A DNA stretch of 48,613 nucleotides from Promethearchaeota archaeon (lineage in GTDB: Archaea > Asgardarchaeota > Lokiarchaeia > Sigyniarchaeales > SOKP01): the NCBI GenBank assembly GCA_048938895.1, contig JBHLLU010000031.1, positions 1-48,613 on the forward strand. The letters are read 5' to 3'. A program made the translations under genes and the position numbers. Of this stretch, positions 17,707 through 32,117 are shown in pieces; the stretch's first letter is position 1; every line of letters starts with the position of its first letter. The notes under the pieces are model-generated. The model saw only the letters and a list, made by a program, of their open reading frames with translations, had not been told where the DNA came from and searched no databases.

Positions 17707-19608
17707 ATGTCGGTAAAAAATTACCCTCCAGAAGAAGTTATCAATCCACCTTCATTAGAGAAAAAAAATTATGAACATGTTATTTTATGGATGTTATTCA
17801 ATAATGATGACTGCGAATGGTCTGATTTTCTCCATAAACCTCTAGAAATTCCGACATCAACTTTATCACGTTATCTTAATGCTTTAAAGACTGAAGGATA
17901 TCTTACCAAATTATCTAAAGGACGTTATAAAATTACCGCAGAAGGCAAGAAAAGATTTTATGATGTATCAAGAACATCAGATAAACAAAGAAAATTAAGT
18001 TATCCTCCAGAGATAATATTAAAAAACAGAAGAAACTATGAACATTGGATTTTATGGATGCTTTATAATAATATGTTTTGTAAATGGGCAGACTTTCTTG
18101 AAGAACCTCTTTCAATTAACCAATCATCTTTATCAAAAATATTAAATTTGATGATGAAAAAGGGGGTAATTAAAAAGGATGAGAGTAATAAAGAATATTC
18201 TATCACTCATTTAGGCAAATTTGAGTATTCAAATATGCTTGAGTATTATGATCTTGATAAACAAACTATTTTAGAGGAAGAGAGTAAGCGAATTGAAAAT
18301 ATTACCAAAAAGACCTTAGCCTTTTTTGAAAAGTTTAATGTTAAACAGAAAAGGATTCAATTTAGGTTTCTAAATAATTTTTTAAAATTAAGTTATGACA
18401 GAGTCAAAACTATCCTAAAAGATGAAGAAGATTATAAGAAAATTTTACTCTTCCTCGCAATTAATCATCCATTTCAATATCCTGAACATATTTCTTCTGA
18501 AGATTTCTCAATGGAATTTAAGATCAAGGAGAACACTCTGACTTATTATATAGATGAAATTGTTGAAAACAATATATATCCAGTAAAGTTTTTTAAACTA
18601 ATCCAAAGCCCAGATAAAAGTTTTTACTTCCAAGAAGATGAAAAACTGGAGACCATGATTCGTGCTATCTGTGAAAGTCACATAAAGGAGTTTACATATT
18701 TAAACAAATTATATGGAACTTCAAAAAGTTTTAACATTATTGTTGATGATATCATTAAGGAAATTTGTACTAATTTATTGAATGAAGGATTAAAAGATGC
18801 ATTAAAAGACTTTATTCCTAAATATTTGGAATACTTAGCATATAAAATTGAAATTGAACTGGAATTAAAAGAATCATATGATAAATTAGAAGGTATCATC
18901 TGGCAGAATATGACAATTATGTTCAATAGTAAAAAAACTAAAAGTATAGAACGCCAATATAAAAAGCAATTGGAAGAGATCGAGCACGCAATTGAATTAG
19001 ATCGAACCAATCTTGAATTATTTTACTCTAAACTCAACATTCTTGTATATTTTAGTAATTATAATGAAATTTTAAATTATTTAGATGAGATGCTTCTATT
19101 ATTTCCTGAAAATGAGATTGAAATTAGCTTGAAAAAAGCGTCTGTTCTTAAAAGAATGAAAAATGTTGAAGATGGATTAGAAATAATTAACCAATTGCTT
19201 TTAAAATTTCCAGATACTGGCGAATTACAAGTATATAAAGCCTACTGGCTGCAATATTTAAACAAAAAAGAAGAGTCAATTAATTTATTAAACAATCTCA
19301 TTAAACATAATCCCAATAATGGTTCCTATCATGATACATATGGTGAAATCCTAATGTATTTTGAAGATTACGAGGAAGCTATAGATCACTTTCAAAAAGC
19401 ATTAGAATTAGCTGGAAAAGAATGGTTTGCAAATCAAACTTATATTAAATTAGGCATTTGTTATAAAGAACAAGGAAATTATGAGTTGGCAATTAAAAAT
19501 CTGAATAAAGGGAAAGAACTAACTGAAGATTTATCATTGGAAGAAAATTTGAAACAAAAGTGGTTAAAGATGGCAGATCTTTTTATCAATGAGATTAAGT
19601 CCTTATAG
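17707..19608 (+). CDS. Tandem winged-helix + TPR protein (probable regulator)
   Basis: Two internal repeats YPPE...NYEH.ILWML.NN..C.W.DF...PL.I..S.LS..LN.....G.....Y.IT..GK, plus C-terminal TPRs (YHDTYGEIL..., TYIKLGICY...). Confidence 0.8.
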   Translation: MSVKNYPPEEVINPPSLEKKNYEHVILWMLFNNDDCEWSDFLHKPLEIPTSTLSRYLNALKTEGYLTKLSKGRYKITAEGKKRFYDVSRTSDKQRKLSYPPEIILKNRRNYEHWILWMLYNNMFCKWADFLEEPLSINQSSLSKILNLMMKKGVIKKDESNKEYSITHLGKFEYSNMLEYYDLDKQTILEEESKRIENITKKTLAFFEKFNVKQKRIQFRFLNNFLKLSYDRVKTILKDEEDYKKILLFLAINHPFQYPEHISSEDFSMEFKIKENTLTYYIDEIVENNIYPVKFFKLIQSPDKSFYFQEDEKLETMIRAICESHIKEFTYLNKLYGTSKSFNIIVDDIIKEICTNLLNEGLKDALKDFIPKYLEYLAYKIEIELELKESYDKLEGIIWQNMTIMFNSKKTKSIERQYKKQLEEIEHAIELDRTNLELFYSKLNILVYFSNYNEILNYLDEMLLLFPENEIEISLKKASVLKRMKNVEDGLEIINQLLLKFPDTGELQVYKAYWLQYLNKKEESINLLNNLIKHNPNNGSYHDTYGEILMYFEDYEEAIDHFQKALELAGKEWFANQTYIKLGICYKEQGNYELAIKNLNKGKELTEDLSLEENLKQKWLKMADLFINEIKSL

Positions 19609-19885: not shown

Positions 19886-20761
19886 ATGATATACAAAGTA
19901 ATGATAATTAAAGCTAGTGGTATACTATGTTATTCTAAAACATTTTACGGAGATGATAAGATAGATGATGATTTTATTAGTGGATTTCTAACTGCTATAT
20001 TAGATATTTCTGAGAAAATAGGGGGTGGAGAAATAAGATCATTAAATTTCAGAAATTTTAATATTAACTATTCTTATGATGATGAAAAACTTTGTATTTT
20101 TATAATAATCGCGGATATTAATGATCCTGAAGAGGAGTTAAAAGAGAAAATAGGAGAATTGAAAAGTGAGTTCATGGATCAATATCGGGAAAGTTTTATA
20201 CGTTGGGATGGTAATATCTCTAAATTTGAAAAGTTTGATGAATTCACTGAACAAAATACGTATCTACCTCCTAAAATTTTACTGATCGGTGAGGATGGAG
20301 TTGGAAAAACTTCAATTCTAAATTTATTTCCTGGGGAGCTTCTAATAGAATTAGATGATGATATGAATGAAATTATACAGAAATCGGTTAAATTATCTAA
20401 TTTCAAAAGGATAAAGAAGTGTGCATTAAGAGAACTCAATGTTGAAGATATATTAAATAATCCAAAAGGATATACACAGACTTTAGAATCCGCTAATATT
20501 ATTTGTTTTGTTACTAATTCAGGTGCGTCCAATTTAAGCAGAACAAGGAACTATTTTTCCCTATTAGAATCAAAAGCGAACAAAGCAAATTTTTATGTTA
20601 TCGCAAACTTTCAAGATCTGCAAGAATTATCTTTTAACCCAGAGAAAATAGAAGAACTCTTTGGAATTAAAACATATGGCTTTTCAGCTATATTAGATAA
20701 TGCTAGAGAAGAGATATCTTCAATTTTATTTGATATGTTAAGTAAAACTATATTGGAGTAA
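19886..20761 (+). CDS. Longin-like domain fused to a small GTPase-like domain
   Basis: N-terminal II..SG...Y...F......DDDFISGFL.AI...S..IGGGEI.SL longin pattern; P-loop GEDGVGKTS; G4-like ANFQD; G5-like FSA. Confidence 0.8.
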   Translation: MIYKVMIIKASGILCYSKTFYGDDKIDDDFISGFLTAILDISEKIGGGEIRSLNFRNFNINYSYDDEKLCIFIIIADINDPEEELKEKIGELKSEFMDQYRESFIRWDGNISKFEKFDEFTEQNTYLPPKILLIGEDGVGKTSILNLFPGELLIELDDDMNEIIQKSVKLSNFKRIKKCALRELNVEDILNNPKGYTQTLESANIICFVTNSGASNLSRTRNYFSLLESKANKANFYVIANFQDLQELSFNPEKIEELFGIKTYGFSAILDNAREEISSILFDMLSKTILE

Positions 20762-21288
20762 TGTACAAACGAAAAATTATGAAATTTAATGAAGAAATTA
20801 TATTTCCTATCTACATATATCAAGACATTTTGAAGAGTATAAAGGAATTGTGCAGTCGATCAGAATCAGAAATTTTTGGATATTTAGTTGGTTCGATTCT
20901 AATATGGAAAGGCAATGTGTATATTATTATTGAGGATTCTATCTTTATTCAAGGTGCTGTTCATAGTGATAAATATTCAACTGCTCAAATAGAAGGGACT
21001 GCTGGTGAGTATCAGAAGGAGTTCCAAAAACTAAAAAAAATGAAAAAGAAAGAGAATTTGAGAATCGTAGGGTGGTGGCATTCACATCCGAATTTTGGAT
21101 GCTTCTTATCATCAACCGATTTACTAACACAAAAATCATTCTTTTATAAATCGTATCAAGTAGCGTTAGTAGTTGATCCAATCAGAAATGAATTCGAGTT
21201 TTTTGTAATCGACAATAGTATAAAAAAGGGTTATAAAGCAAGTAGTTATGCAATTATCAAAATTGATAGTTCTAAAGAAATAATTTAG
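20761..21288 (+). CDS. JAB1/MPN+ (JAMM) metalloprotease, Rpn11-like
   Basis: EIFGYLVG ... VGWWHSHPNFGCFLSSTD ... ALVVDP. Start overlaps the upstream stop (TAATG). Confidence 0.93.
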   Translation: MYKRKIMKFNEEIIFPIYIYQDILKSIKELCSRSESEIFGYLVGSILIWKGNVYIIIEDSIFIQGAVHSDKYSTAQIEGTAGEYQKEFQKLKKMKKKENLRIVGWWHSHPNFGCFLSSTDLLTQKSFFYKSYQVALVVDPIRNEFEFFVIDNSIKKGYKASSYAIIKIDSSKEII

Positions 21289-21290
21289 AA

Positions 21291-22175
21291 ATGCCAGAAA
21301 AAAATAAAAAATTGAAGGACTACACTGTATTTGGTATAGATTCTATAGATTCAGATATATTCGATCGTCAAAAAAGGATAAAAGGATGGGATCAAGGAAA
21401 AATTCAAAAATCTACTGTAATGGTTATCGGTGCCGGTGCTACCGGCAATGAGTTAGTAAAAAATTTAGTTTTAACTGGTATTGGTAAAATATACTTAATT
21501 GATTACGATTATATTAATCCTTCAAATTTAAACCGATGTATCTTGTTTAGTATCGAAAGCGCTAATCGAAAAGAGTACAAGGCGGATGTTGTGAAGGAAG
21601 CATGTGCAAATATAAGTTCTAATACAGAAATAATCTCTATTAAACAAGATTTAGATAATATTGATAAAACTCTTTATAAAAAATCGGATGTAATATGTTC
21701 TTGTGTCGATAATATTGAAGCAAGAATAGAGGCTAATAATAATGCCTTTTATTATAAAATTCCTTTTGTAGATTCTGGTATCGATGAATTTTTTGGAAGC
21801 ATTCAATCTGTATATTCTGAAGTGAAGGATGCTGCATGCCTTCAATGCAATATTACTGATATTGATTTAGATTTAATGTGGAAAAAATATTCCTGCACGG
21901 GCCAAGAAATAAATAGTGAAAACGGCGAAACTTTTGGAGTCATAGCTTCAATTATCACAACCACATCGATTATTGGCGGTTTACAATCACAAGAAGTCTT
22001 AAAATTTATATTAGGTTTAGAATATTTCAAGGAAAATAAAAAATGGAATCCTTATATCGGTCAACCCTTAATTGGTAAACAATTGAATTATAATGGGATA
22101 TTAAACCGATTTGAAATTATTGATAAATTAAAAAATCCAGATTGTTGGATATGTTCATATAAAGAAAATGTTTAA
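21291..22175 (+). CDS. Ubiquitin-activating E1-like enzyme (ThiF/UBA family)
   Basis: FDRQ, VIGAGATGNE, D.D.I..SNLNR, CVDN..AR, CLQC, candidate catalytic Cys in YSCTG, and CWIC. Confidence 0.93.
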   Translation: MPEKNKKLKDYTVFGIDSIDSDIFDRQKRIKGWDQGKIQKSTVMVIGAGATGNELVKNLVLTGIGKIYLIDYDYINPSNLNRCILFSIESANRKEYKADVVKEACANISSNTEIISIKQDLDNIDKTLYKKSDVICSCVDNIEARIEANNNAFYYKIPFVDSGIDEFFGSIQSVYSEVKDAACLQCNITDIDLDLMWKKYSCTGQEINSENGETFGVIASIITTTSIIGGLQSQEVLKFILGLEYFKENKKWNPYIGQPLIGKQLNYNGILNRFEIIDKLKNPDCWICSYKENV

Positions 22176-22237
22176 TCAGTAAAATTTTATAATTAGAAAA
22201 ATATAATGAAAAATATCAGAATAAAAAGTGATTTTTC

Positions 22238-22798
22238 TTGCCTGAACTTCCTTATGAAATATGGAAAGAGAGAATTGATAATGAACTAAATAATGTTCAA
22301 AAATTAAATGTTTTGGCTAATGACTCTATAAAAAGAACTGATGAGTTTACAGAACTTATCTTCAACGTTAAAGCATTAGGTTTTATTATGAAAGATTCTG
22401 AATTACTTCCAAAGGATTTGCATAAGATTCATTTAAGATTAAATCGAATGTTTCCGTATCCAGGAGGCGTAGATTTCTCTTGGCTCACTGAAATATTTCA
22501 CCCAAATATTGATTCAGTTGAAAAATCATTTTCAAGTGAACATGGTACAGGTTATATATGTTTAAACATATTGAAACAATGGTCTCGATTATCTGATTTG
22601 GTAACTATTGTAAAAGCTTTGGAAATCTTAGTAGAAAATCCAAATCCTGATGATCCCCTTGATTATCCTTATTGCTTGGAAGCCGCGAAGTATTTTAAGA
22701 AGCATAAAATTGAAAAATTAAAAAAGAAATTTATATCAGAGAGCAATGATAAAGAACCTAAAGAAGAAGATGAGGATGATATAGTTATTCTAGACTAA
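22238..22798 (+). CDS. Ubiquitin-conjugating E2 (UBC fold)
   Basis: FPY, W.T.IFHPNI, G.ICLNILKQWS and L...PNPDDPL, with an acidic tail. TTG start. Confidence 0.92.
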   Translation: MPELPYEIWKERIDNELNNVQKLNVLANDSIKRTDEFTELIFNVKALGFIMKDSELLPKDLHKIHLRLNRMFPYPGGVDFSWLTEIFHPNIDSVEKSFSSEHGTGYICLNILKQWSRLSDLVTIVKALEILVENPNPDDPLDYPYCLEAAKYFKKHKIEKLKKKFISESNDKEPKEEDEDDIVILD

Positions 22799-22803
22799 CT
22801 AAA

Positions 22804-23067
22804 TTATTCTAATAATCCCCCGATAACTCTTGTCCATAAAATTAATGTTTCTTTTTCTTTCAATCCATATTTATGAACTGCATCTGAGACTGTAATTTTA
22901 TTCGGTAACTCCTTGTTATTTAAAACTAATGTATAAGAACGTTGTTCAGAACTAATTATTCCTATATGCTTTACAACAATATCTATTATCCTTTCAATTT
23001 GGTGATGATCTTTAACTTCTAACTTAATAATTTTCCCTGTTCTTGAGTCCTCAACTGAGATTTTCAT
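22804..23067 (-). CDS. Ubiquitin-like (beta-grasp) modifier precursor
   Basis: MKISV...TGK.I.LEV start resembles ubiquitin; ends RVIGG followed by an LLE extension. Confidence 0.88.
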   Translation of the reverse strand: MKISVEDSRTGKIIKLEVKDHHQIERIIDIVVKHIGIISSEQRSYTLVLNNKELPNKITVSDAVHKYGLKEKETLILWTRVIGGLLE

Positions 23068-23136
23068 GTTATTACGCCATCTATTTTGAAATATATGTTT
23101 AAATTATTAATCGAAACCATATAAAAGTTAAGATTT

Positions 23137-23364
23137 TTATTCCTCGGCAGTAGATTCATCGCGATTAGCCATATAAAAAAGCAATCCTATAAAAAAAGGA
23201 GTGATCCAAACAATCAAAAACCATACAACAGCATTTAATCCTTTTTTTTTAGCATCTCTATAAACCCAAATTGCTACAATCATCAATATTGCATACGGAA
23301 TAATTAAAAATGTTAAAAGAAGTAAACCAATCAAGAAATATAAATCACTATAGACATTAAACAA
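23137..23364 (-). CDS. Small two-TM membrane protein (PLDc_N-like)
   Basis: IWVYRDAKKKG.NAVVW.LIV...P.FIGLLFY pattern; overlaps the upstream gene by 8 nt. Confidence 0.7.
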   Translation of the reverse strand: MFNVYSDLYFLIGLLLLTFLIIPYAILMIVAIWVYRDAKKKGLNAVVWFLIVWITPFFIGLLFYMANRDESTAEE

Positions 23365-24382
23365 TTGAAATATCCTCTCCCTCAGTTAATTTTGGTTTTC
23401 CCTCATCAAAGGGAGTTTCACATACCCAGCAGGAATTTTCCAAATTAGTTAAAGCATTAGAACACCTAACACAATACAAGACGTCACATTTAGGACATAC
23501 ATAATTAAGTCGAGAAATTTTACTCTTACATACAATACAAATCTTCTCTTTTCTAAAATGCTCTATTTCTTCTTCGGTGATGGTTTGAGGTTTAGTAAAC
23601 ATTGATAAAAAATCTTTTACAGTTTTTTTCTCTTCAATTTCTTCAGAACTTTGAGTTCTTCGACGCTTAGTTAGATTTATTACTATGTAAACAATTACTA
23701 TTCCAAGAACTATAGCGGAAATCCATATTATTATTAAAAAAATCATACTTAAAGGTAAGTTGGTAAATATTGTAAATCCTAAAAATATAAATATAGTTCC
23801 AATTGAGAATATAACTACCCAATTCGCCAGCTTTCTTGAAAAGAAATCAAGATTTACAACTAGTGGAGATAATGCTACTAATGCCCCTGACATGACTAAA
23901 ATCGAAGGAATGGCAGAATAAATTATATCTAAATGTTTTATTATAGTTATCTCAAAAGCCCACCCTATTAAAAATATGGTAAAACCAATCGTCATCACAG
24001 ATGAAATCGTCTGAAATTCTTCTTTGGATTTTATAGAAAACCATATATACATCACACTCAAGCATATTACATTAATAAAGATATATATAAAAAAATATAA
24101 ATAAAAATAAAGAAGAATATAATTTTCCACTCCGAAAGTTTCAATAATGACACTTAAATCTCCTGTATAAGTCCCTTCTAAAATATAATCAGATATATAA
24201 AAAAATGTCCTTGCAAGAGCAATATTAAACCAGAAAAGAGTAAATGCATACATCAAAGATCTTTCATATACCGTTTCTCCTCTACGACCTCGATTAAAAT
24301 AATAAATACTACATGTAAGTATTACAATGATTGTAACGCTTGAAAAGAACCTCTCAATTGGATCAAAGGTTATGAAAATAAT
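23357..24382 (-). CDS. Multi-pass membrane protein with C-terminal C4C4 RING-like Zn finger (candidate E3 ligase)
   Basis: CIVC...CPKC...YC..C...CWVC at the C-terminus. The frame stays open upstream of TTG 24256 to 24391 and encodes an extra TM helix; the start is uncertain (ATT 24382 proposed). Confidence 0.75.
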   Translation of the reverse strand: MIFITFDPIERFFSSVTIIVILTCSIYYFNRGRRGETVYERSLMYAFTLFWFNIALARTFFYISDYILEGTYTGDLSVIIETFGVENYILLYFYLYFFIYIFINVICLSVMYIWFSIKSKEEFQTISSVMTIGFTIFLIGWAFEITIIKHLDIIYSAIPSILVMSGALVALSPLVVNLDFFSRKLANWVVIFSIGTIFIFLGFTIFTNLPLSMIFLIIIWISAIVLGIVIVYIVINLTKRRRTQSSEEIEEKKTVKDFLSMFTKPQTITEEEIEHFRKEKICIVCKSKISRLNYVCPKCDVLYCVRCSNALTNLENSCWVCETPFDEGKPKLTEGEDISIV

Positions 24383-24548
24383 TTCTTTTTTTCACCACTC
24401 TCTTTTCTTGAAAAGAACATTCTCTAATAATTAGCTTATAAGGGATTTCTCTTTAAAAAAATTTTGATTTTTATTCTGGTAACTGATTTAAATATGACTA
24501 AGAATTAAAGAATTAAGTAGACATATACTAAAGAAAATTTTAGATATT

Positions 24549-25577
24549 ATGAAAAGAAAAGTAATTTTATTTCCATTCCTGATTATGATAGGCTTTAGTT
24601 TAATTATTGCCATACCAATCGGTGTGTTATCAGATAATCTTTCCTCATATGAAATTTATGATGATTCTTTTTACTATGAATATTTACCAGATACACCTTC
24701 AACTATTGAGAGTTTAAATCTTAATATCGAATTGGGAAATGTAGATATAAAATACTTGAATCCCCCAGTAGATTACTATGCGAAAATTGATGTATATATT
24801 GAGATGGCAGGTCCAGGATTGGCGGGAAAAGATTGTTTTGATTATTTTATTATAAATGAAGGGAATTCAACAGATTCACCAATAGATTTTTCATTACAGT
24901 TGCAACCAGGAATAACTGATTTTGAAGTAAATACTCTTATAAAGAATGTTACAATTCTGGTATCTCTGAGTAAAGCTATTATCTTTAATATATCGACTAG
25001 TGTAATTAACGGGAATATTGAATTGTCTGTACCTTTTAATGTTCAAGTTAACGACTTGAATGCTCACATTGCCAGTGGAGATATTTTATTTGACTTGAGA
25101 AATTGTATTCTTGAGGGAAATATCACGGGGATTGGGAACCAATCTAATATTGAATTAAGAACTTATAATATCCAATGTACGAGAGATAGCGACTGGTATA
25201 TAAAGAATGCTGTAGGTGATCTTATATTAAATATAACTCAATCAGTAGAAATGAGTGCAAATATTACAGCAAATGCAGAAATCGGAACACAATATACAAC
25301 GGCTTATGTATTTTATAAGGATTTTTCTCCTAATATTGGTTCAATACTATATCTAAATCAATGGGATGGGTATTTCCCTGATGAATGCCATCCTAATGAT
25401 CTTAATGAATGTGAAAGGGTTGGATATAAAAACTGGGAAGATTTGTACACTACTCCGATTACAGGGTATCTTTTTACTTCTTTTGATTTTCCTGCTCAAT
25501 ATAATTATAATATATCATTAAATAGAAATAATTATAGCAATCCTAAGCCCTATTTTTGGAATCTTTACAATGAGTAG
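24549..25577 (+). CDS. Membrane-anchored beta-strand-repeat surface protein (DUF4097/adhesin-like)
   Basis: N-terminal TM, repeated 'x-x-G-D/N-I-x-L/F' strands, many N-x-S/T sequons and a C-terminal S.DFP...NYNISL motif. Confidence 0.65.
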   Translation: MKRKVILFPFLIMIGFSLIIAIPIGVLSDNLSSYEIYDDSFYYEYLPDTPSTIESLNLNIELGNVDIKYLNPPVDYYAKIDVYIEMAGPGLAGKDCFDYFIINEGNSTDSPIDFSLQLQPGITDFEVNTLIKNVTILVSLSKAIIFNISTSVINGNIELSVPFNVQVNDLNAHIASGDILFDLRNCILEGNITGIGNQSNIELRTYNIQCTRDSDWYIKNAVGDLILNITQSVEMSANITANAEIGTQYTTAYVFYKDFSPNIGSILYLNQWDGYFPDECHPNDLNECERVGYKNWEDLYTTPITGYLFTSFDFPAQYNYNISLNRNNYSNPKPYFWNLYNE

Positions 25578-25594
25578 GTTTAAATAAAAAAGGA

Positions 25595-27346
25595 TTATTC
25601 GAAATATGCATATTTTAATATAAACTTCCATTGAGCACCTTCAACCGGGATTCCTTTAACGCTTGAAGCCCATACATGCCAGTATATATATGAATGTGTC
25701 CAAACTACAGGATAAAGTTCTTCAACAAGTCTTTTTTGAATATTATAGTAAATTTGTTCTCGAAGGGTTTCATTGGTCTCAATTACTCCCTGTTCGATCC
25801 AAGTATCCAATTGAGAATCACTAAGATTATAATGATTAAACCAGCCATTCGTATGATATAATGGGTTAATCATTTCCACGGGATCGTTGAAAGCAGGACC
25901 CCAACCCACAGACCAAAATTCCATTCCACCATTAATCAATTTTTCCCACCATAATTGTGATGATAAATTTAGAGCTATTACTTTGACTCCAATCTGTTTA
26001 AGATATTCAGCAATCAAACTTGCTTGCAAAATATGAGACTCTCTATCTGCCTCTATTGAAAAATTATATATAGCTAGAGGGGTATCATCATCAACTAATT
26101 TTTCCCATTCATTTCCAGCGCTTATATTATCATTTGCAGTTAAACCAGATGTACCAGACCAACTCGCATTTATTAACGTTTGTCGTGCTATGGTGAGATT
26201 AGTATAGGGTACATTTAGATCCCACCGAGAATATAGCATGCCGTTGGAAAGAGGTGATTTGCATCTTATAGCTTCATTATCTAAAAATATCTTGATAAAA
26301 ATGTCGATATAATCTGAATAATTAAATGCATACGATATTGCCTTTCGCATTTCTAAAGGAAAAAGATCGTAATTCATCGCAATAACAAAGTTAGTGGGAT
26401 GAATATATGAGATTGCTGTTAGATTTGATGTGCTCTTAAGAATCTCCAGACGAGTTGTATCTGAAGTCCTTGAAGTAAAATGTAACCGCCCTGTTAGCAT
26501 TTCAGAAACAATATCCTCATCACTTATATGTTCGAAATGAACAATATCAATTTTTGGTTTTCCCCCCCAATAATTTCTGTTTGCTCGAAGAGTTATATTT
26601 CCGCACAATCCATATGGGTAAACCATATCATACCATTCTAAAACAAAAGGACCGGTTCCAACCATTTTTCCATTGTATCTATCAACAAAATCTTCTTCCG
26701 GCGTGGAAGTTGGCGAAAGGAAAAAAGAAGAAAAAGTAGATAATAACGATCTAAATGGAGCATATACATCATTTAATACAAATCTTACGGTATATTCATC
26801 AAGTACTACTGTTTCATTAATGATGTACCTTCCGTCTGGTAAAAAATACATATAAGCCCAAACCCAAGTATCACCTGAATCTTTATTTTCAATAATCCAA
26901 TGTAATCTCTCGAAATTCCATTTTACAGCCTCGGCATTAAAGGGTGTTTTATCATGAAATTTAACTTTTTCTTTAAGAGGTACAGTTAAATTTAAATCAT
27001 CTGAACTCCACGTACCAAAATCTTTTGCTAAGCATGGAATCATTGGAGTATCTTCTCGGGACTGGTTAAACTCAAATAATCCTTCAATTATTTGAGACCA
27101 TACCCTTCCATTTGGGGTGAAACATAAATCATCAGGATTATATAATGGATCCCAAGAATTCAGAAACCAATCATGAAGACCGCTGTTTAGTACGCTTTCA
27201 GGTTTTTTTTCTTCTCTAAACAAATACATACCTCCAAAAATACCTGATATTGCGAGGGCAGCTATAAAACCGCTAATAATTAATGGTTTCTTTATTTCAG
27301 CGAGTTTCGATAACTTTTTTTTAGTTGAGGCTTTTTCTCCAGTCAT
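25595..27346 (-). CDS. ABC-type peptide/nickel substrate-binding protein (SBP family 5)
   Basis: N-terminal TM; P.LA....WSSD....T..LK..VKFHD.TPFNAEAVKWNFER, GTGPF, RKAISYA and R..IY..IQ. Confidence 0.9.
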   Translation of the reverse strand: MTGEKASTKKKLSKLAEIKKPLIISGFIAALAISGIFGGMYLFREEKKPESVLNSGLHDWFLNSWDPLYNPDDLCFTPNGRVWSQIIEGLFEFNQSREDTPMIPCLAKDFGTWSSDDLNLTVPLKEKVKFHDKTPFNAEAVKWNFERLHWIIENKDSGDTWVWAYMYFLPDGRYIINETVVLDEYTVRFVLNDVYAPFRSLLSTFSSFFLSPTSTPEEDFVDRYNGKMVGTGPFVLEWYDMVYPYGLCGNITLRANRNYWGGKPKIDIVHFEHISDEDIVSEMLTGRLHFTSRTSDTTRLEILKSTSNLTAISYIHPTNFVIAMNYDLFPLEMRKAISYAFNYSDYIDIFIKIFLDNEAIRCKSPLSNGMLYSRWDLNVPYTNLTIARQTLINASWSGTSGLTANDNISAGNEWEKLVDDDTPLAIYNFSIEADRESHILQASLIAEYLKQIGVKVIALNLSSQLWWEKLINGGMEFWSVGWGPAFNDPVEMINPLYHTNGWFNHYNLSDSQLDTWIEQGVIETNETLREQIYYNIQKRLVEELYPVVWTHSYIYWHVWASSVKGIPVEGAQWKFILKYAYFE

Positions 27347-27530
27347 TTTAACCTTCCATCCTTATCAATACTGTCTAAAGAGATAGTTGAAAATTAGATT
27401 TCTTAAATATAGTATAAATTTTAAATTGGATACATTTGTTATTAAAGCTTACGATCAACAATCTTAAATAATGATTGATTTTTATAATAAAAAATCATAT
27501 CAAAATAAATGAAATCGGTAAGTTTTCGAA

Positions 27531-28529
27531 ATGATAAAGAAAAGTGTAATTATCTACATGTTTTCTATTATATTAGGATTTGGCATTCTAATTTTCATCC
27601 CGATTAAAATCATTTCTATTGATCTTTCATCCTATGGCAAGATTGAACAAACTGTTTCCCATATTTATGCGCCAAGCTCACCCACATCTATTCAAGATTT
27701 AAATTTAGATATTGATGTAGGGGATATTAAAGTAGGATATGTATATCCCCCGATCAACTATGTCATTAAAATCGATCTGAGTTTAGAAATGGAGGGTATA
27801 AATTTAACAGGGAAATCAATTTCAGATATCTTTATTTTTACATGGCAAAATACGAGCACTGTTCTTAATTTGACCTTATTCTTGAAGGATAATAATTGGT
27901 TTGACAAATCTTTAGTGTTATCAAAAAATCTTGAAATTATTGTATCCCTTAACGCATTTTACCTATTCAATATAAATACTAATGTGAACTATGAAGGTGG
28001 TTTTGATTTAAAAGTACCTTGGAATCTTTCTCTAAATAATATCGATGTGAATGTAACCGATGGGAATATTCTTTTTGATTTTAACAATTGTATTTTAGAA
28101 GGTAATGTTACTGGGATTGTTAATCATGAAAATGGATATATAGAATTGAAAGCAAATAATATAGAGTTAGCACGTAATAGTTATTGGAATTTGAAAAATT
28201 TGAAGGGGGATATAAAATATAATATTACTCAGGAGAAAGAAATGGGTGCGAATGTAAGTAGTGTTTGTGAAACAGACCTTGGTAAAATAACTGTTTTATA
28301 TAAGGATACTTCTCCTGAAGTTGGTGCTATATTTTATTTTCATGGGACAAACAATCATGAGGGTATTTGGGAAGGTTTTAATGACAGATCTGAAATAGAC
28401 GAGGGAAAATGGTGGCTATCGCGTTTTATTTATGATTCTTTTGATTTTCCAACCAATAGCAATTATAATATCTCACTTTTTAGAAATTTCTATGGTCAGG
28501 ATTATACATTTAATCTACTCAATATGTAG
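27531..28529 (+). CDS. Paralog of 24549-25577 (beta-strand-repeat surface protein)
   Basis: Shared motifs P..I..LNL.I..G...., GNILFD..NCILEGN.TG, YKD.SP..G and SFDFP...NYNISL. Confidence 0.65.
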   Translation: MIKKSVIIYMFSIILGFGILIFIPIKIISIDLSSYGKIEQTVSHIYAPSSPTSIQDLNLDIDVGDIKVGYVYPPINYVIKIDLSLEMEGINLTGKSISDIFIFTWQNTSTVLNLTLFLKDNNWFDKSLVLSKNLEIIVSLNAFYLFNINTNVNYEGGFDLKVPWNLSLNNIDVNVTDGNILFDFNNCILEGNVTGIVNHENGYIELKANNIELARNSYWNLKNLKGDIKYNITQEKEMGANVSSVCETDLGKITVLYKDTSPEVGAIFYFHGTNNHEGIWEGFNDRSEIDEGKWWLSRFIYDSFDFPTNSNYNISLFRNFYGQDYTFNLLNM

Positions 28530-28566
28530 AATTTCTTGGAAATAAAAAAAAATATGAAATTAAGAA

Positions 28567-30270
28567 TTAAGTGAAATACCATTCATTCCAGTTCATCCCA
28601 TAATTATTATACTGATTATATCCCTCTATTCTTGTTGAAATAGGAATAAAACCTTCTGTTGTATACCACCAAATTACAGGATAGAGATCTTCTATCATAT
28701 ATCTTTGTATTTCATAATAAATCTGTTCCCGTACAGATTCATTTGTTTCAACCATTCCATCGTCTATTAATTGTTCTAAATATATATCTTGAACTTGACC
28801 ATAATTTTGAAATGTCACAAAATTTGGTAAGAGATTATTATGAGGATCATTATAATCAGGAACCCAACCATAAAGTATGAATTGATCAGTTGTAAGTGTA
28901 TCCCAATAATCAGGTCCTGTTTTGCCAACAGTAGTAACATTTATTCCTATTTGCGTGAGGTTATTTTGGAATAAAAGTGCGATTTCCTTTCGAAATTGTA
29001 CTCCAACAATATAAGAGAAATTATAGTTATCCAAAGGTGTTTTGCTTTTTGCCTTTAATTCCCATTCATTACCCGTACTAACATTATCATTTGCTGTTAA
29101 ATTCTCTGTACCGGGCCAATTTGCATCTTTCAGGAATTGCCTTGACTTTGCAATATTATAAACTGGTACTTCAAAATCCTCCCAATTAGAATAAAGCATC
29201 CCCTTTGAGAGAGGTGACTTACAACGAACTGCCGAAGTCGCTGATCCTGTGAAATTTAATCCATAAGGAACTAGTTTATCATAATCAAGAGCGTAAGAAA
29301 TTGCTTTCCTCATTGTAGAGTTAATTACACTATTATTCATTGTTATAAAGTTGACTTCGGGATTGACCTTTTCCAATATATTAATTCCAGTTTTGTTTTC
29401 AAATTCAACTTTAGGGAATCCAGACATAATTACATCGATTTCCCCAGATAGCATTGCTTCTTTTAATTCGTCATCATCATGGTAAGTTTTTATAATTATT
29501 TTGTCAAAAGATGGTCCAATTCCGTAATAATCATGATTAGCTGTTAAAGTTGTATTGTGCCATATATATTCCTCCAATACTGGATCCCAGCTACGAACAG
29601 TTGATTCATGTTTAAAAGGCCCGGTTCCAACAAGGTTTCCCGAGTCAAAATATGTGAAGTTATCAAAAGGAGTTGAACTAGGTGATACCATATTGGGTCC
29701 ACGAGCCAGTAAGGATATAAATGGCACGAAAGGTCTGGTTAAGACAAACCTTATCGTATAATCATCAATGACAACTGTTCTGTTAAGAATTGGAGTCCAA
29801 CCTGGATGAAACCACAAATACCATCCAGGTGTGCTAAAGAGAAGATTATCAAGCCTATCAAAATTCCATTTTACTGCTGTAGCGTTAAAAGGCGTACCAT
29901 CATGAAATTTCACTCCCCTTCTGAGGTTACAAGTGAAATTTAACCCATCATCACTCCAATCCCCATCTAGGGCCAGACAAGAGACTATGCTTGATCCTTC
30001 ACTGGTGAATTCATATTGAAATAATGGATCTACAATATTTTCCAATATAGCATAAACTTCAAAATTACCAAATAACATTGGATCAAGAACATACAAACCT
30101 CCATGAGTTCCATAAATAAGAACCTTTTCTTTTCCTTCAGTAGTTAACAAAAATATACCGCCAATAATTCCTGCGATTGCTACACTTGCAACCATTCCTC
30201 CGCCAATTAGAGGTTTTTTTAATTCTTTAAGTGATTTCTTAATTCTTTTTTTAGGTTCGTTCTCATTCAT
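28567..30270 (-). CDS. ABC-type substrate-binding protein (SBP family 5), paralog of 25595-27346
   Basis: LRRGVKFHDGTPFNATAVKWNFDR, GTGPF, RKAISYA, RCKSPLS.GMLYS and GW.PDYNDP. Confidence 0.9.
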   Translation of the reverse strand: MNENEPKKRIKKSLKELKKPLIGGGMVASVAIAGIIGGIFLLTTEGKEKVLIYGTHGGLYVLDPMLFGNFEVYAILENIVDPLFQYEFTSEGSSIVSCLALDGDWSDDGLNFTCNLRRGVKFHDGTPFNATAVKWNFDRLDNLLFSTPGWYLWFHPGWTPILNRTVVIDDYTIRFVLTRPFVPFISLLARGPNMVSPSSTPFDNFTYFDSGNLVGTGPFKHESTVRSWDPVLEEYIWHNTTLTANHDYYGIGPSFDKIIIKTYHDDDELKEAMLSGEIDVIMSGFPKVEFENKTGINILEKVNPEVNFITMNNSVINSTMRKAISYALDYDKLVPYGLNFTGSATSAVRCKSPLSKGMLYSNWEDFEVPVYNIAKSRQFLKDANWPGTENLTANDNVSTGNEWELKAKSKTPLDNYNFSYIVGVQFRKEIALLFQNNLTQIGINVTTVGKTGPDYWDTLTTDQFILYGWVPDYNDPHNNLLPNFVTFQNYGQVQDIYLEQLIDDGMVETNESVREQIYYEIQRYMIEDLYPVIWWYTTEGFIPISTRIEGYNQYNNYGMNWNEWYFT

Positions 30271-30397
30271 TCTATATACCTTTCAAAATTTTGAAATTTG
30301 ATAATTAAGCAATTGAGATTTCAAATTTTGTTATAATTTACTAATTAAACAGTTGAATTATTAAACTTTTCTAAAAATGGAGAAAAACCATATAAAT

Positions 30398-30943
30398 CTA
30401 CATAGTCAGAGTTTTTTCATATAATCTTTCAATAATTGCATTAAATGCTTCATGAACTCCTTTACCTGTTTTAGCAGAAGTTATATAATAATCAAGAAAA
30501 CCAAGATCTTGAATAACGTTATTAATAGGTGAATGATCTAAAGAATCTTCATCAATCAAATCAACCTTATTTGCAAAAAGAACGATTGGGACTTTACCAC
30601 AGAATTGAATTACCTCCTGATTCCAGTTGTTAATATTTTTAAAACTTAATTCACCTAATTGATTTTCTTCAAGGCTATACACTATAATAGCAGCATTGGT
30701 ATCCCTATAAAAAGAGGGGCGTAAAAAATCAAAATCTCTTTGTCCTGCAATATCCCAGAATAGTAATCTAATATTATCTCCATTAATATCTTTATCATAC
30801 TTAGAAAATTGAGCACCGATGGTCTCAACATAATCCGTTTCAAAAGTGCCTAAAGTATATTTAGAAATTAGGGATGTCTTCCCAACCCTTACATCCCCTA
30901 CGACTGTAATTTTATATCTTAATTTCCTTCCGGGGGCACTCAT
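30398..30943 (-). CDS. Rab-like small GTPase
   Basis: GDVRVGKTS, TIG, WDIAGQ, NKVD and TSAK; no C-terminal prenylation Cys. Confidence 0.95.
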   Translation of the reverse strand: MSAPGRKLRYKITVVGDVRVGKTSLISKYTLGTFETDYVETIGAQFSKYDKDINGDNIRLLFWDIAGQRDFDFLRPSFYRDTNAAIIVYSLEENQLGELSFKNINNWNQEVIQFCGKVPIVLFANKVDLIDEDSLDHSPINNVIQDLGFLDYYITSAKTGKGVHEAFNAIIERLYEKTLTM

Positions 30944-31037
30944 AAAATAGAAGAAATATGAGAGGATGATATTTACAATATGATTAGATTTTCAACAATA
31001 TAAAATTTTGTAAGAAGAATAATAATAACCTAATTGA

Positions 31038-31745: not shown

Positions 31746-31783
31746 AATGAGAAATAAAATTCAAAAGTTTAAAATTTTAACCT

Positions 31784-31942
31784 TTAGTCATTTTCATGAA
31801 TCTCTGAAGGTTTAACTCCGTCGAATAATTCAAGTTTTAAGAATTTCTTTTCTTTATTGCAATTGGGACAGAAATATATACCAGGTTCTCGATTCTTAAA
31901 ACTATAACCACAATCCTTATCCACAGCGTAAAACAAATTCAT
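31784..31942 (-). CDS. Small Zn-ribbon protein (52 aa, below the ORF-track cutoff)
   Basis: ATG 31942 to TAA 31784: MNLFYAVDKDCGYSFKNREPGIYFCPNCNKEKKFLKLELFDGVKPSEIHEND (DxxC...CPxC knuckles). Confidence 0.65.
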   Translation of the reverse strand: MNLFYAVDKDCGYSFKNREPGIYFCPNCNKEKKFLKLELFDGVKPSEIHEND

Positions 31943-32117
31943 ATAATAAAAATAATTAAGGATTGTTATTTAACTTATCTCATGATGTTCATTTTAACAA
32001 TTAATATGATTTTTATAAAGAAAATAAATAAATTAAAAGTCTTGTATAATTAATTTATATCTAACTAATGATTTATCATTCACATTATATTTTAAATCAT
32101 CAAGTAATGCGATTCTA

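Follow-up and report, generated by a model that had tools for sequence, protein, structure and literature searches.

A probable ubiquitin-like conjugation locus that encodes a longin-GTPase and a RING-like membrane protein in a Promethearchaeota genome

In a stretch of 48,613 nucleotides from a Promethearchaeota archaeon (contig JBHLLU010000031.1; hereafter the window), we found a ubiquitin-like conjugation locus made of two converging gene groups (Table 1). The plus strand carries a longin-GTPase, a JAMM metalloprotease, an E1 and an E2, and the minus strand carries a RING-like membrane protein, a small protein with two hydrophobic segments (2-TM) and a ubiquitin-like protein (Ubl). All seven open reading frames lie where an earlier note on this DNA had placed them, and its description of the convergent layout was accurate, including the 5 nt between the E2 and Ubl stops, which follows because the E2 ends at 22798 and the Ubl frame at 22804. 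The GTPase stop and the JAMM start share 1 nt, and the 2-TM gene overlaps the end of the RING gene by 8 nt. A 2731-nt contig assembled independently from another run covers positions 21449-24179 with 8 differences and 0 indels, and bridges the convergent E2/Ubl junction. The arrangement is not confined to one genome, as it recurs in 38 related loci that together with the window form a synteny sample of 39 loci from the same family.

Table 1. Genes of the locus and of the cassette companions that flank it, with positions in the window.
Feature	Position	Strand	Size and remarks
wHTH-TPR protein	17707-19608	+	633 aa, cassette companion
Longin-GTPase	19886-20761	+	291 aa
JAMM/MPN+ metalloprotease	20761-21288	+	175 aa
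Compact E1	21291-22175	+	294 aa
UBC-fold E2	22238-22798	+	186 aa, TTG start
Pro-Ubl	22804-23067	-	87 aa
2-TM protein	23137-23364	-	75 aa, two hydrophobic segments (hydropathy)
RING-like polytopic membrane protein	23357-24256	-	299 aa from TTG at 24256; probably from 24382
Probable surface protein	24549-25577	+	342 aa, cassette companion

The conserved module extends past the coordinates of the earlier note and adds the two companions in Table 1. The wHTH-TPR protein has two winged-helix domains (Pfam HTH_34/MarR) followed by C-terminal TPRs (Pfam TPR families); a homologue lies within 8 kb in 15 of the 39 loci and also adjoins satellite cassettes, described below, at L064-L066. The other companion is probably a surface protein: it has a membrane anchor at its N-terminus, carries 10 N-x-S/T sequons (hydropathy and sequon count) and matches no Pfam family above cut-off. 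Its homologues lie within 8 kb in 11 of 39 main loci and also flank satellite cassettes, and two paralogues are present in the window (27531-28529 and 39885-40973). Around the locus lie ordinary metabolic and surface genes, and composition shows no shift along it. A search of the window ORFs of at least 90 aa (E ≤ 1e-5) detected no ESCRT or proteasome family, in line with the earlier note. The lack of ESCRT genes does not set the locus apart, however, because in Lokiarchaeota the ubiquitin genes and the ESCRT genes are reported to occupy two separate regions (PMC9192718).

Pfam matches above cut-off were obtained for the JAMM (JAB, 2.3e-12, as compared to 3.9e-6 for Prok-JAB), the E1 (ThiF, 5.2e-45) and the E2 (UQ_con, 8.6e-12); the GTPase, the Ubl and the RING-like protein gave sub-threshold matches only and were therefore examined by structure or profile. 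The catalytic motifs of the three enzymes are intact, in agreement with the earlier reading. The JAMM motif E…HSHP…S..D is found in 19 of 19 sequences, one of which has HSHI, and we infer that the JAMM is both the pro-Ubl maturase and a deconjugase. In the E1, the motifs GxGAxGNE, SNLxRC, CxQC, K.SCTG.E and CWxCS are invariant (19/19). When aligned with the 411-aa E1 of the same genome, it consists of the adenylation domain alone and has no C-terminal extension; because it ends 8 residues past the second CxxC, it has no C-terminal ubiquitin-fold domain. The E2 is divergent, but its motifs HPN and GYICLN are kept in 21 of 21 sequences. About 10 additional residues separate HPN from the catalytic Cys, and the C-terminal tail (…EDEDDIVILD), acidic and hydrophobic, is kept in 20 of 21. 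The best PDB matches of the E1 are eukaryotic Uba1 (1.3e-20), MoeB (5.5e-16) and BubCD (8.4e-11), and those of the E2 are eukaryotic Ubc13-like and Rad6 E2s (4e-8). Judged by these sequence matches, with UQ_con found and no PADLOC match for the E2, both enzymes appear closer to eukaryote-type than to bacterial enzymes.

In the AF2 model of the Ubl (pLDDT 86.3), the best PDB matches by Foldseek are ubiquitin itself (TM 0.72/0.81, 31-33% identity), and a profile aligns residues 7-84 with ubiquitin 6-76, although E-values against single ubiquitins are only 0.06-0.5. The Ubl is thus predicted to have a ubiquitin fold. It ends in VIGG followed by LLE, and V[IV]GG followed by 0-8 variable residues is present in 19 of 19 sequences. 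These features bear on whether the locus could encode a MoaD/ThiS-type sulfur-carrier pathway, with a MoeB/ThiF-type E1 and no protein conjugation. While the E1 has the size of MoeB and matches ThiF and MoeB best in NCBIfam (all far below cut-offs), the conserved UBC-fold E2 with its HPN and Cys, the RING-like finger, the pro-peptide past GG, an E1 without a rhodanese domain and a Ubl whose nearest structures are ubiquitin make this reading exceedingly improbable.

The AF2 model of the GTPase (pLDDT 81, pTM 0.77) suggests a longin domain joined to an Arf/Rab-like small G domain: residues 1-129 resemble the longin domain of VAMP7 (Z 14.1, rmsd 2.3, 114 aligned), with further matches to Fuzzy (Z 14.0) and Sec22 (Z 13.1), and residues 126-291 resemble Arf1 (Z 16.4). 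In a 14-sequence alignment, the P-loop GxxGVGK[TS] and the G4 motif NFQD are invariant; however, the canonical switch-II DxxG is absent and an invariant switch-I Thr was not seen. On both counts, GTP hydrolysis, and even switching, is uncertain.

The membrane protein is 299 aa long if it starts at the canonical TTG (24256); from an ATT near 24382 it would have about 341 aa and seven hydrophobic segments. The locus end of 24391 in the earlier note is only the stop-to-stop limit of this frame and had to be corrected. The N-terminal helix continues in frame upstream of 24256, and GGTGA followed by ATT or ATC is found in 5 of 5 loci, so a non-canonical ATT start is likely. Eight Cys spaced C-x2-C-x10-C-x2-C-x4-C-x2-C-x10-C-x2-C, and a Trp in CWxC, are invariant in 15 of 15 relatives, consistent with a RING-like zinc finger of the C4C4 type at the C-terminus, on the cytoplasmic side. 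Its RING identity is unproven, as all Pfam and PDB-profile matches are below threshold: zf-C3HC4_3 (best 2.6e-6, in 5/15), RNF4 (2.4e-4) and TRIM37 (3.4e-3) are among them, and C1_2 matches all 15 relatives as compared to only 5-6 for RING families. Searches of the seven-helix domain for sequence or feature similarity to named families, and a family search with the 75-aa 2-TM protein, found none. A 2-TM homologue is present within 8 kb in 17/39 loci, always adjoining the RING-like membrane gene.

On another contig of the same genome, we found a canonical cluster with a PF00240 ubiquitin, the 411-aa E1, a 175-aa E2 and a 277-aa JAB. The window E2 is only 26-31% identical to other E2s of this genome, and BLAST detected no similarity between the window Ubl and the ubiquitin. 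Among 400 genomes of the phylum, close E2 and Ubl orthologues occur in only one order, in two families. The proposal that this is a distinct system therefore holds up. The proposed link to the GTPase is also borne out. JAMM, E1 and E2 are adjacent in this order in 39/39 loci with a convergent Ubl in 37, a GTPase of the locus family lies immediately 5' of the JAMM in 36 and within 8 kb in 38, and in a sister family GTPase, JAMM and E1 are contiguous in 3 of 3 loci while E2 and Ubl are dispersed. Of 134 genomes in the home family, 64 have the E2, the Ubl and the GTPase together, 61 have none of the three and 9 are mixed. Because kin are not independent, fewer independent observations stand behind these synteny and co-occurrence counts than the numbers suggest. 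The membrane link is less firm: 33 of 39 loci have a RING-like membrane protein no farther than 8 kb away, with no such match in the other 6, and the finger is present in the sister family as small soluble proteins.

Another reading is that the locus is a paralogue of the ordinary Asgard ubiquitin operon and redundant with it, and that the GTPase and membrane genes have unrelated functions and adjoin it by chance. These genomes are indeed rich in small GTPases and longin proteins (the longin-GTPase architecture is found at 1e-15 in 217 of the 400 genomes) and some loci have no membrane genes; however, the position of the GTPase next to the JAMM in both families and the overlapping gene starts and stops speak against chance. 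High-scoring orthologues of the locus GTPase are also confined to genomes with the E2 and Ubl, and enzyme-less satellite cassettes again unite a Ubl, a GTPase and a RING-like membrane protein. We therefore disfavor this explanation as very unlikely.

The satellite cassettes (RING-TM2-GTPase/Ubl, without enzymes) are found on contig C37 of the same genome and at loci L038, L042 and L064-L066. In a Ubl tree built from an 87-column alignment, in which many forks are unresolved, Ubl lineages partly follow the type of the adjacent GTPase, with five of six helical-type satellites forming a starred clade. One GTPase-family member, at a single locus, is fused to a TIR domain (TIR_2, 3.2e-15, with a weaker ThsB_TIR match), and members in 12 of 39 loci are fused to a CN-hydrolase domain; such fusions are no less expected of a conflict system than of a housekeeping one. 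The system is dispensable, as it is missing from same-genus genomes rated 100% complete (G185 and G207). The main rival explanation is an antiviral or conflict system like bacterial Bil/Bub or CBASS Cap2/Cap3, in which conjugation of the Ubl would mark a protein of an invader or activate an effector, the sensor or switch would come from the GTPase family, and the effectors would be TIR, CN-hydrolase or membrane proteins. An accessory system carried by about half of the family genomes, lost as a unit and present in multi-copy, diversifying cassettes would fit this picture. In contrast, PADLOC gives only generic JAB and E1 matches and none for the E2, Ubl, GTPase or membrane proteins, an E1-E2 fusion is absent, no Ubl or E2 relatives were detected on viral contigs, the TIR fusion is limited to one locus, and neither the neighbours nor the composition are unusual. 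We consider a conflict role unlikely, though worth serious weight.

Taken together, we favor the reading (probability about 0.6) that the locus encodes a self-contained, GTPase-gated, membrane-anchored Ubl conjugation system that works at the cytoplasmic membrane, apart from the ordinary ubiquitin operon. The evidence consists of the genes present and their folds, the intact motifs, the conserved synteny and the coupled presence and absence; from it we infer all of the biochemistry, the membrane substrates and what the GTPase does. The JAMM would trim the three residues past VIGG from pro-Ubl, the compact MoeB-sized E1 would adenylate the exposed Gly and load the Ubl on the Cys of its invariant SCTG loop, and the Ubl would be transferred to the E2 Cys in GYICLN. 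Since the E1 has no ubiquitin-fold domain to recruit the E2, the conserved acidic/hydrophobic E2 tail is the likeliest docking substitute. With the seven-helix protein and its 2-TM partner in the membrane, the cytoplasmic C4C4 finger would discharge E2~Ubl onto membrane-proximal substrates. The longin-GTPase, probably co-transcribed with JAMM and E1, would bind the Ubl as a nucleotide-dependent adaptor and regulate how it is supplied or delivered, and the JAMM would also reverse conjugation. Satellite cassettes, each with a Ubl, a GTPase and a RING-membrane protein of its own, would draw in trans on the one E1/E2/JAMM set. A comparable route is described for Caldiarchaeum, where a 9-residue pro-peptide is cut off by an Rpn11-like JAMM before E1 and E2 act, and the JAMM deconjugates (PMC5654768).

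When the RING C-terminus, Ubl and GTPase were predicted as a complex, with the GTPase scored, we obtained 0.57, 0.55 and 0.57, as compared to a best of three of 0.00 in controls, including one in which the Ubl alone was replaced. The runs share at least 30% of contacts, with partner pLDDT of at least 79. Of 157 solved complexes, 116 reach the mark, as do 2 of 215 mismatched pairs; just 18 of the 157 reach it with scores of up to 0.60, and so do both passing mismatches, and our predictions used custom alignments and three chains, unlike the calibration. These models lend weak support to such a complex, as scores of this size are more often wrong unless the complex is likely beforehand.

We found no paper describing such a system in the literature. 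If the favored reading is true, this Asgard archaeon has a second, lineage-restricted ubiquitin-like tagging system beside the ordinary one, and the locus would physically join two eukaryote-like toolkits, Ubl tagging and a longin-GTPase switch, previously considered scattered.

Among eukaryotic systems, UFM1 conjugation uses Uba5, a compact homodimer-type E1 without a ubiquitin-fold domain, together with Ufc1 and the ER-anchored UFL1-DDRGK1; a short peptide rather than a domain recruits the E2, and ligation takes place at a membrane. The locus E1 matches Uba5 at 1.9e-12 (PDB); however, the locus E2 keeps HPN and is nearest to classical eukaryotic E2s, and the ligase candidate is RING-like. 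Orthology is not indicated. The membrane protein shares the architecture of the polytopic ligases Hrd1, gp78 and TRC8 and of the MARCH family, in which several membrane helices precede a cytoplasmic C-terminal RING-type finger, but its finger is of the C4C4 type, with 4 residues separating the fourth Cys from the fifth. Like Bil/Bub and Cap2/Cap3, the locus is a compact, patchily distributed set of Ubl, E1, E2 and JAB; unlike them, its E1 and E2 are separate genes and the E1 is nearer to Uba1 than to BubCD. A longin fold joined to an Arf/Rab-like G domain is also known from the SRX-SRbeta pairing of the SRP receptor, and SRbeta chains are among the structural matches of the locus GTPase. The same combination occurs in Asgard longin-GTPase fusions, described as a 'Rag family' (bioRxiv 10.1101/2020.10.19.343400), from which the locus subfamily differs by its N-terminal longin and degenerate switch II; it is the only longin-GTPase subfamily that we found inside a Ubl enzyme operon in this analysis.

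Closer to home, a Hodarchaeial neighbourhood unites ubiquitin, UEV-Vps23, Yip1 and a Rab-like GTPase (bioRxiv 10.1101/2023.07.25.550441), and it shares with our locus an Asgard ubiquitin gene adjoining a small GTPase and a membrane protein. That neighbourhood is ESCRT-linked through UEV-Vps23, and the passage describing it lists no E1, E2 or JAMM; in contrast, the locus has no ESCRT genes and combines a full enzyme set with a longin-fused GTPase and a RING-membrane protein. The Caldiarchaeum subterraneum operon, described with Ub, E2, E1 and srfp and an adjacent Rpn11-like JAMM, and the Asgard clusters I and II (PMC5654768) share with the locus a clustered pro-Ubl, JAMM, ThiF-type E1, UBC-type E2 with HPN and Cys, and zinc-finger E3 candidate. 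The supplement of that study assigns a ubiquitin-like domain at the C-terminus to cluster I/II E1s, which the locus E1 does not have, and describes 'Cluster III', whose E1 is likewise without this domain, as bacterial-like; 'Cluster III' may include relatives of this locus. Compared to these operons, the locus has an E3 candidate fused to a seven-helix membrane domain, a longin-GTPase in the operon, enzyme-less satellites, E2 and Ubl orthologues within one order and an ordinary ubiquitin cluster alongside.

In the window, we found all seven open reading frames that an earlier note on this DNA had assigned to two converging operons, and the 5-nt distance that it had given between the stop codons of the E2 and Ubl genes is seen in the coordinates (see table). 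On the plus strand, the GTPase and JAMM genes overlap by 1 nt, JAMM and E1 are separated by a 2-nt gap and E1 and E2 by a 62-nt gap; on the minus strand, there is an 8-nt overlap between the 2-TM gene and the end of the RING-like gene. GC content is ~30% and flat across the locus. The assembly is 4.65 Mb in 174 contigs, 98.7% complete and 7.5% contaminated. A 2731-nt contig from a different public run spans 21449–24179 with eight substitutions and no indels; as this independently assembled contig bridges the region without an indel, an assembly artefact can be ruled out for the convergent junction.

Features of the locus and of the gene set that recurs with it
Feature	Coordinates	Strand	Product or remark
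wHTH-wHTH-TPR protein	17707–19608		part of the recurrent gene set
Longin-GTPase	19886–20761	+	291 aa
JAMM	20761–21288	+	175 aa
E1	21291–22175	+	294 aa
E2	22238–22798	+	186 aa, TTG start
Ubl	22804–23067	–	87 aa
2-TM protein	23137–23364	–	75 aa
RING-like membrane protein	23357–24256	–	299 aa from the called TTG start
Probable surface protein	24549–25577		342 aa, membrane-anchored, sequon-rich; part of the recurrent gene set

Among window ORFs of at least 90 aa, we found no Pfam family of ESCRT-I, -II or -III or of Vps4 at E ≤ 1e-5, in line with the absence of ESCRT genes reported earlier. There is no tRNA in the 48.6-kb window, and a scan for sigma-70-type promoters and terminators, whose promoter model is wrong for archaea, gave sites no commoner than in shuffles. 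The window also carries a heliorhodopsin gene (6708–7532, minus strand; Pfam 7.6e-98) and three paralogues of the 342-aa type of surface protein, at 24549, 27531 and 39885–40973, the first two of which are interleaved with two SBP_bac_5 solute-binding proteins (24549–30270). At 28567–33155, genes for an SBP_bac_5 protein, a Ras-family GTPase (30398–30943), an AlaX-like protein and an LRR protein follow one another; a second genome of the genus has the same Ras GTPase and AlaX genes with a single Ubl of this family, standing alone, inserted between them (L069, 5908–11109).

Three of the locus proteins pass the curated Pfam cut-offs (JAB 2.3e-12, ThiF 5.2e-45, UQ_con 8.6e-12), and a search of NCBIfam with the locus proteins gave no match up to its family cut-off. 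The catalytic motifs described earlier as intact (JAMM HSH/S/D, the E1 cysteine in SCTG, E2 HPN and cysteine) are conserved in relatives. The JAMM set of E, HSH, S and D is kept in the window and in 18 relatives, with HSHI replacing HSHP in one. All 19 E1 sequences have GxGAxGNE and SNLxRC, DN.E.R at the Mg site, the two CxxC pairs and, without variation, a K.SCTG.E loop; judged by its motifs, the E1 has the make-up of a ThiF-type adenylation domain with a zinc-binding CxxC pair and a predicted catalytic cysteine. Among solved structures it comes closest to eukaryotic Uba1, in the active adenylation domain (1.3e-20), followed by Uba6 and SAE2, and further by MoeB (5.5e-16), Uba5 (1.9e-12) and bacterial BubCD (8.4e-11). 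The window E1 ends eight residues past the second CxxC, whereas the 411-aa E1 encoded elsewhere in the same genome runs ~85 residues further, and in this comparison the C-terminal ubiquitin-fold domain that recruits E2 is absent from the window E1.

The E2 keeps HPN and the cysteine of GYICLN in 21 of 21 sequences, and its best PDB matches are eukaryotic E2s (4e-8), relative to which it carries ~10 extra residues between HPN and the cysteine. At the extreme C-terminus, 20 of 21 sequences, those of the sister family of the same order among them, carry an acidic stretch and after it four to five Ile/Val/Leu residues and Asp. E2-like tails also end window-type RING proteins (…EDISIV; 5/15) and, in some loci, the third tandem copy of the GTPase. 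We infer that the E2 tail is a candidate docking peptide; by analogy with a SUMO-interaction motif its receptor could be Ubl, or else it could be the longin domain.

Ubl has no Pfam match. Its C-terminus is V[IV]GG in 19 of 19 sequences, followed by 0–8 variable residues. An Arg or Lys stands before V[IV]GG, so that trypsin would leave V[IV]GG on a modified lysine, a remnant that differs in mass from plain diGly. An AF2 model built from an alignment of 17 sequences (pLDDT 86.3) is nearest to ubiquitin itself (TM 0.72/0.81, 31–33% identity in the structural alignment). The Ubl profile aligns end to end with ubiquitin, with an E-value against single ubiquitin of only 0.06–0.5; the low E-values against polyubiquitin arise because the repeats are summed. 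In one related locus (L067, 6911–8539, plus strand), a 542-aa ORF has an N-terminal Ubl of this family with VVGG at the junction and ~430 aa after it, resembling a ubiquitin-fusion precursor. Sulfur transfer as the function of the locus is a poorly supported reading.

The membrane protein ends in a zinc finger, at about residues 225–299, with the spacing C-x2-C-x10-C-x2-C-x4-C-x2-C-x10-C-x2-C, in which eight cysteines and a tryptophan are invariant in 15 of 15 relatives. We take this spacing to resemble that of C4C4 RINGs such as CNOT4. All database matches of the finger are sub-threshold, both in Pfam (C1_2 in 15/15, zf-RING_2 in 6/15 and zf-C3HC4_3 in 5/15, the last at 2.6e-6 at best) and among PDB profiles (RNF4 2.4e-4, PKC C1 domain 3.2e-3, TRIM37 RING 3.4e-3), and they are common to C1, B-box and zinc-ribbon families as well as RING; because they are sub-threshold and mixed, we call the protein RING-like. 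A search of the ESM Atlas with the full protein gave no usable match.

The frame of this gene is open for 45 codons upstream of the called TTG start and encodes a hydrophobic helix homologous to the N-termini of relatives. This upstream frame has no ATG, GTG or TTG in the window or in four related loci (L036, L039, L040 and L041); in all five, a GGTGA box lies 6–12 nt before an in-frame ATT or ATC. The gene thus seems to start at a non-canonical ATT/ATC codon (window 24256–24394, minus strand), and a start at 24382 gives 341 aa with about seven hydrophobic segments. Our reading of the topology, from the Lys/Arg-rich loops, is that the finger would face the cytoplasm. In the window, there is also an ATG on the upstream side of an A7 run (A_AAA_AAG), in the –1 frame; we rejected a frameshift there in favour of the non-canonical start because the four relatives lack the A7 run and keep GGTGA and ATT/ATC, and because contigs from other runs show no indel.

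The same C4C4 finger is found on non-membrane proteins near the cluster in three loci (L073, 14758–16443, minus strand; L079, 10543–12114, plus strand; L047, 5845–7617, plus strand): FG-GAP beta-propeller proteins in two cases (523 and 561 aa), and in the third a coiled-coil/zinc-ribbon protein of 590 aa. The sister family has small soluble proteins of 67, 70 and 158 aa, with one or two finger copies, that lie 1–5 kb from a GTPase-JAMM-E1 operon (L091, 4897–5365, minus strand; L092, 1209–1685, minus strand). Because the sister family has soluble fingers beside GTPase-JAMM-E1, these data suggest that the fusion of finger and membrane protein arose in the home family, to which the window belongs.

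In a model of the 291-aa GTPase (pLDDT 81, pTM 0.77), residues 126–291 match Arf1 (Z 16.4) and also other Arf, Rab and FeoB G domains. Residues 1–129 match longin domains, namely VAMP7 (Z 14.1; rmsd 2.3, 114 aligned), Fuzzy (14.0), a chain of the beta/delta-COPI core complex (5mu7_B; 13.8) and Sec22 (13.1), and the secondary structure of the model follows the longin order beta-beta-alpha-beta-beta-beta-alpha. ESM Atlas matches to the longin part score 0.82–0.83 at best, under the 0.9 lead level, with Fuz_longin_1 in 34% of the members of one cluster. In 14 sequences, the GxxGVGK[TS] P-loop, NFQD (G4) and FSA (G5) are kept, P-loop and NFQD invariantly; the switch-II (G3) DxxG glycine is absent, the aligned position being RE[LIV][DN][LVIF]x[DE]L, and there is no invariant Thr (switch-I) between the P-loop and the switch-II strand. 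The small-GTPase fold and guanine pocket are retained in this putative GTPase.

The family occurs in three forms: longin-G (~290–315 aa, at times as two or three copies in tandem), longin-G-helical-CN-hydrolase (~870–880 aa), and G-helical without a longin domain (~340 aa). The long form reaches Pfam CN_hydrolase above the cut-off (1.1e-5 to 1.3e-8), and we read its Glu-Lys-Cys residues as present; this nitrilase-superfamily domain could act as an amidase, a deconjugase or an acyl-transfer enzyme. A CN-hydrolase-bearing protein lies within 8 kb in 12 of 39 loci.

When we predicted a three-chain complex of the finger domain, Ubl and GTPase and scored the GTPase, three runs gave 0.57, 0.55 and 0.57, for which the verdict of the tool is 'weak support' and which fall in a range (0.60 or under) where only 18 of 157 solved complexes, and both of the mismatches that passed, come up to the mark. 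Over all scores, 116 of 157 solved complexes and 2 of 215 mismatches do so in the calibration, from which our prediction differs in having three chains and alignments of our own. Agreement between the runs extends to at least 30% of contacts, partner pLDDT is at least 79, and three controls, including one in which only Ubl was swapped out, all gave 0.00. Taken with the conserved GTPase-JAMM-E1 core, this weak support would make a Ubl-binding adaptor or switch the most economical role for the GTPase.

To see how far the arrangement recurs, as the earlier note had proposed, we classified the ORFs of 38 further E2-centred loci with the proteins of the window. These were chosen from 69 other E2-positive genomes of the home family for long contigs and spread over six genera, not for gene content, and counts of 39 include the window. 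JAMM, E1 and E2 are colinear in 39 of 39. Ubl converges on E2 in 37, with spacing from a 17-nt overlap to a ~290-nt gap; L038 and L042 lack a convergent Ubl. A GTPase-family gene lies directly upstream of JAMM on the same strand in 36 (all but L042, L050 and L084; the script counted 34, and L080, with a split gene, and L083, with an ORF-call overlap, were added on inspection) and within 8 kb in 38. A RING-like membrane homologue is found within 8 kb in 33 loci (28 at 290 aa or more), the 2-TM gene in 17, wHTH-TPR in 15 and the surface protein in 11. In the sister family, E2 and Ubl stand alone among unrelated genes, and GTPase-JAMM-E1 is contiguous in three of three loci. A chance neighbourhood of GTPase and membrane genes is poorly supported.

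In a sample of 400 genomes of the phylum, the home family (69/134) and the sister family (3/4) are the only ones with full-length E2 orthologues (E ≤ 1e-47); the remaining matches are partial, at 1e-10 or weaker, to ordinary E2s of ~155 aa. Ubl (E ≤ 1e-3) is present in 72 of 134 home-family, 4 of 4 sister-family and 0 of 262 other genomes. A search for E2 homologues gave 278 proteins at E ≤ 0.001; each of the best 120 of the 278 is a close orthologue and bears the name 'ubiquitin-conjugating enzyme E2'. They are assigned to Promethearchaeota (Asgard) MAGs whose labels at lower ranks disagree, and no eukaryotic or bacterial sequence is among these 120. Of the 134 home-family genomes, 64 have all of E2, Ubl and a high-scoring GTPase (E ≤ 1e-35), 61 have none and nine are mixed; same-genus genomes rated 100% complete lack all three. 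Since the genomes counted are kin, synteny and co-occurrence counts do not stand for independent events, yet the pattern is still that of a single module, its parts acquired and lost jointly.

Ubl also occurs in satellite cassettes, with a GTPase and a RING-like membrane gene. On contig C37 of the same genome (39687–43611; L056, 6688–10612), a gene for a longin-G-helical-CN-hydrolase protein of 861 aa faces a RING-like membrane gene and a Ubl that converge on it, and the cassette lacks E1, E2 and JAMM; this Ubl is 67% identical to the window Ubl and ends VIGGLEYNY. Elsewhere there are one to three satellites per genome (L038, L042, L064–L066), with the layout surface protein; RING-membrane, 2-TM and G-helical genes converging on Ubl; wHTH-TPR. 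In a tree of 51 Ubls (87 columns, with many forks unresolved), one starred clade holds five of six satellites beside G-helical genes, and another the Ubls of six loci with the long CN-hydrolase GTPase. Because these clades track GTPase type, Ubl lineages tend to travel with it, although shared ancestry explains part of this.

The main rival reading takes the locus for a defence or conflict system. In its favour, genomes can do without the module and lose it as a unit, cassettes have multiplied and diverged, and members of the GTPase family carry a fused CN-hydrolase in many loci and a fused TIR in one (TIR_2 3.2e-15). In that locus (L051, 8920–9876, minus strand), the fusion of G domain and TIR lies directly downstream of Ubl, at the place of the 2-TM and RING genes in other loci. 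However, PADLOC recognises only the generic JAB and E1 parts, viral contigs scanned with the Ubl alignment and E2 gave pattern matches and no tblastn relative, and the surrounding genes are ordinary. Lipid conjugation of the Atg8 type was set aside, since only the membrane setting speaks for it.

A biochemical cycle for the locus can be proposed by analogy with the reconstituted Caldiarchaeum system. There, according to PMC5654768, a pro-peptide of nine residues is cut off by an Rpn11-like JAMM, and without this cleavage the modifier is refractory to E1; E1 and E2 become charged, transfer is stimulated by a small RING protein, and deconjugation is again the work of JAMM. In the window system, the E2 tail would replace the missing E1 ubiquitin-fold domain as docking element, and the GTPase would bind Ubl as adaptor or switch. 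Taken further, Ubl would be a nucleotide-dependent ligand of the longin-GTPase, the seven-helix RING and its surface-protein partners would be receptor-like ligases, and the paralogous cassettes, each with its own Ubl, GTPase, 7-TM RING and wHTH-TPR regulator, would be separate signalling channels on one E1/E2/JAMM core; we give this joint reading roughly one chance in five. Ras recognises ubiquitin-fold RBD/RA domains, and by analogy Ubl would be a ubiquitin-fold 'effector'. If true, the joint reading would make the locus a forerunner, in a prokaryote, of ubiquitin signalling coupled to receptors, in which a single enzyme set serves several modifiers.

Asgard genomes have many small GTPases, longin proteins and ubiquitin parts, and the genes are mostly scattered. 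Here, in two families, one operon ties a longin-GTPase to a full set of Ubl enzymes and to a candidate membrane ligase, which offers a concrete, reconstitutable assay for an Asgard GTPase. An E1 that has no E2-recruiting domain and is accompanied by an E2 whose conserved tail resembles a docking element, a polytopic RING-like protein in a prokaryote, and several Ubl paralogues apparently sharing one E1/E2 all bear on the diversification of eukaryotic ubiquitin signalling.

The same genome has a canonical cluster on contig C126, in which a PF00240 ubiquitin (110 aa), the 411-aa E1, an E2 (175 aa; UQ_con 5.4e-26) and a JAB protein (277 aa) stand in a row; further E2-like genes are on C140 and C146. 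The one at C146 44046–46172 (L059, 6206–7843) encodes a 545-aa protein with UQ_con (6.8e-12), UBC-like and RWD matches, an E2/UEV-type multidomain protein unrelated to the window locus. The window E2 is 26–31% identical to the other E2s of the genome over ~120 residues, and the window Ubl has no BLAST similarity to the PF00240 ubiquitin. The separate C126 cluster, the low E2 identity and the order-restricted E2 and Ubl rule out that the window locus is the ordinary Asgard ubiquitin operon, and the suggestion of a distinct system holds in that respect. A full-text search of literature on Asgard ubiquitin, ESCRT and ESP neighbourhoods found no description of a longin-GTPase/membrane-RING-linked Ubl cluster in the portions available; Supplementary Fig. 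1 of PMC5654768 and the bioRxiv supplements may bear on this point. The parts themselves are already known, annotated piecemeal in public records, with E2 named as such.

ESCRT-linked Asgard ubiquitin clusters have ESCRT neighbours, in contrast to the window locus, for which none was found among ORFs of at least 90 aa (E ≤ 1e-5) on the whole 48.6-kb contig. It is reported that Lokiarchaeota keep ubiquitin and ESCRT genes in two regions (PMC9192718), that in Hodarchaeia ubiquitin adjoins UEV-Vps23, Yip1 and a Rab-like GTPase (bioRxiv 10.1101/2023.07.25.550441), and that Asgard genomes encode longin-GTPase fusions (bioRxiv 10.1101/2020.10.19.343400). According to the PMC5654768 supplement, the ubiquitin-fold domain of cluster I/II E1s is linked to stable E2 binding; the window E1, in contrast, has no such C-terminal domain. 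'Cluster III' of the same source comprises archaeal loci with UBL-less E1s and may overlap the window system. With respect to bacterial Bil/Bub and CBASS Cap2/Cap3, PADLOC matches of the seven locus proteins are only to generic JAB (best 1e-7) and E1 (best 1.6e-13) models, with no match for E2 or Ubl, and whereas Cap2 is an E1-E2 fusion, the window E1 and E2 are separate genes. With archaeal and eukaryote-like E1-E2-RING cascades, the window locus shares a GG-ended modifier, an E1, an E2 with HPN and cysteine, and a JAMM protein.
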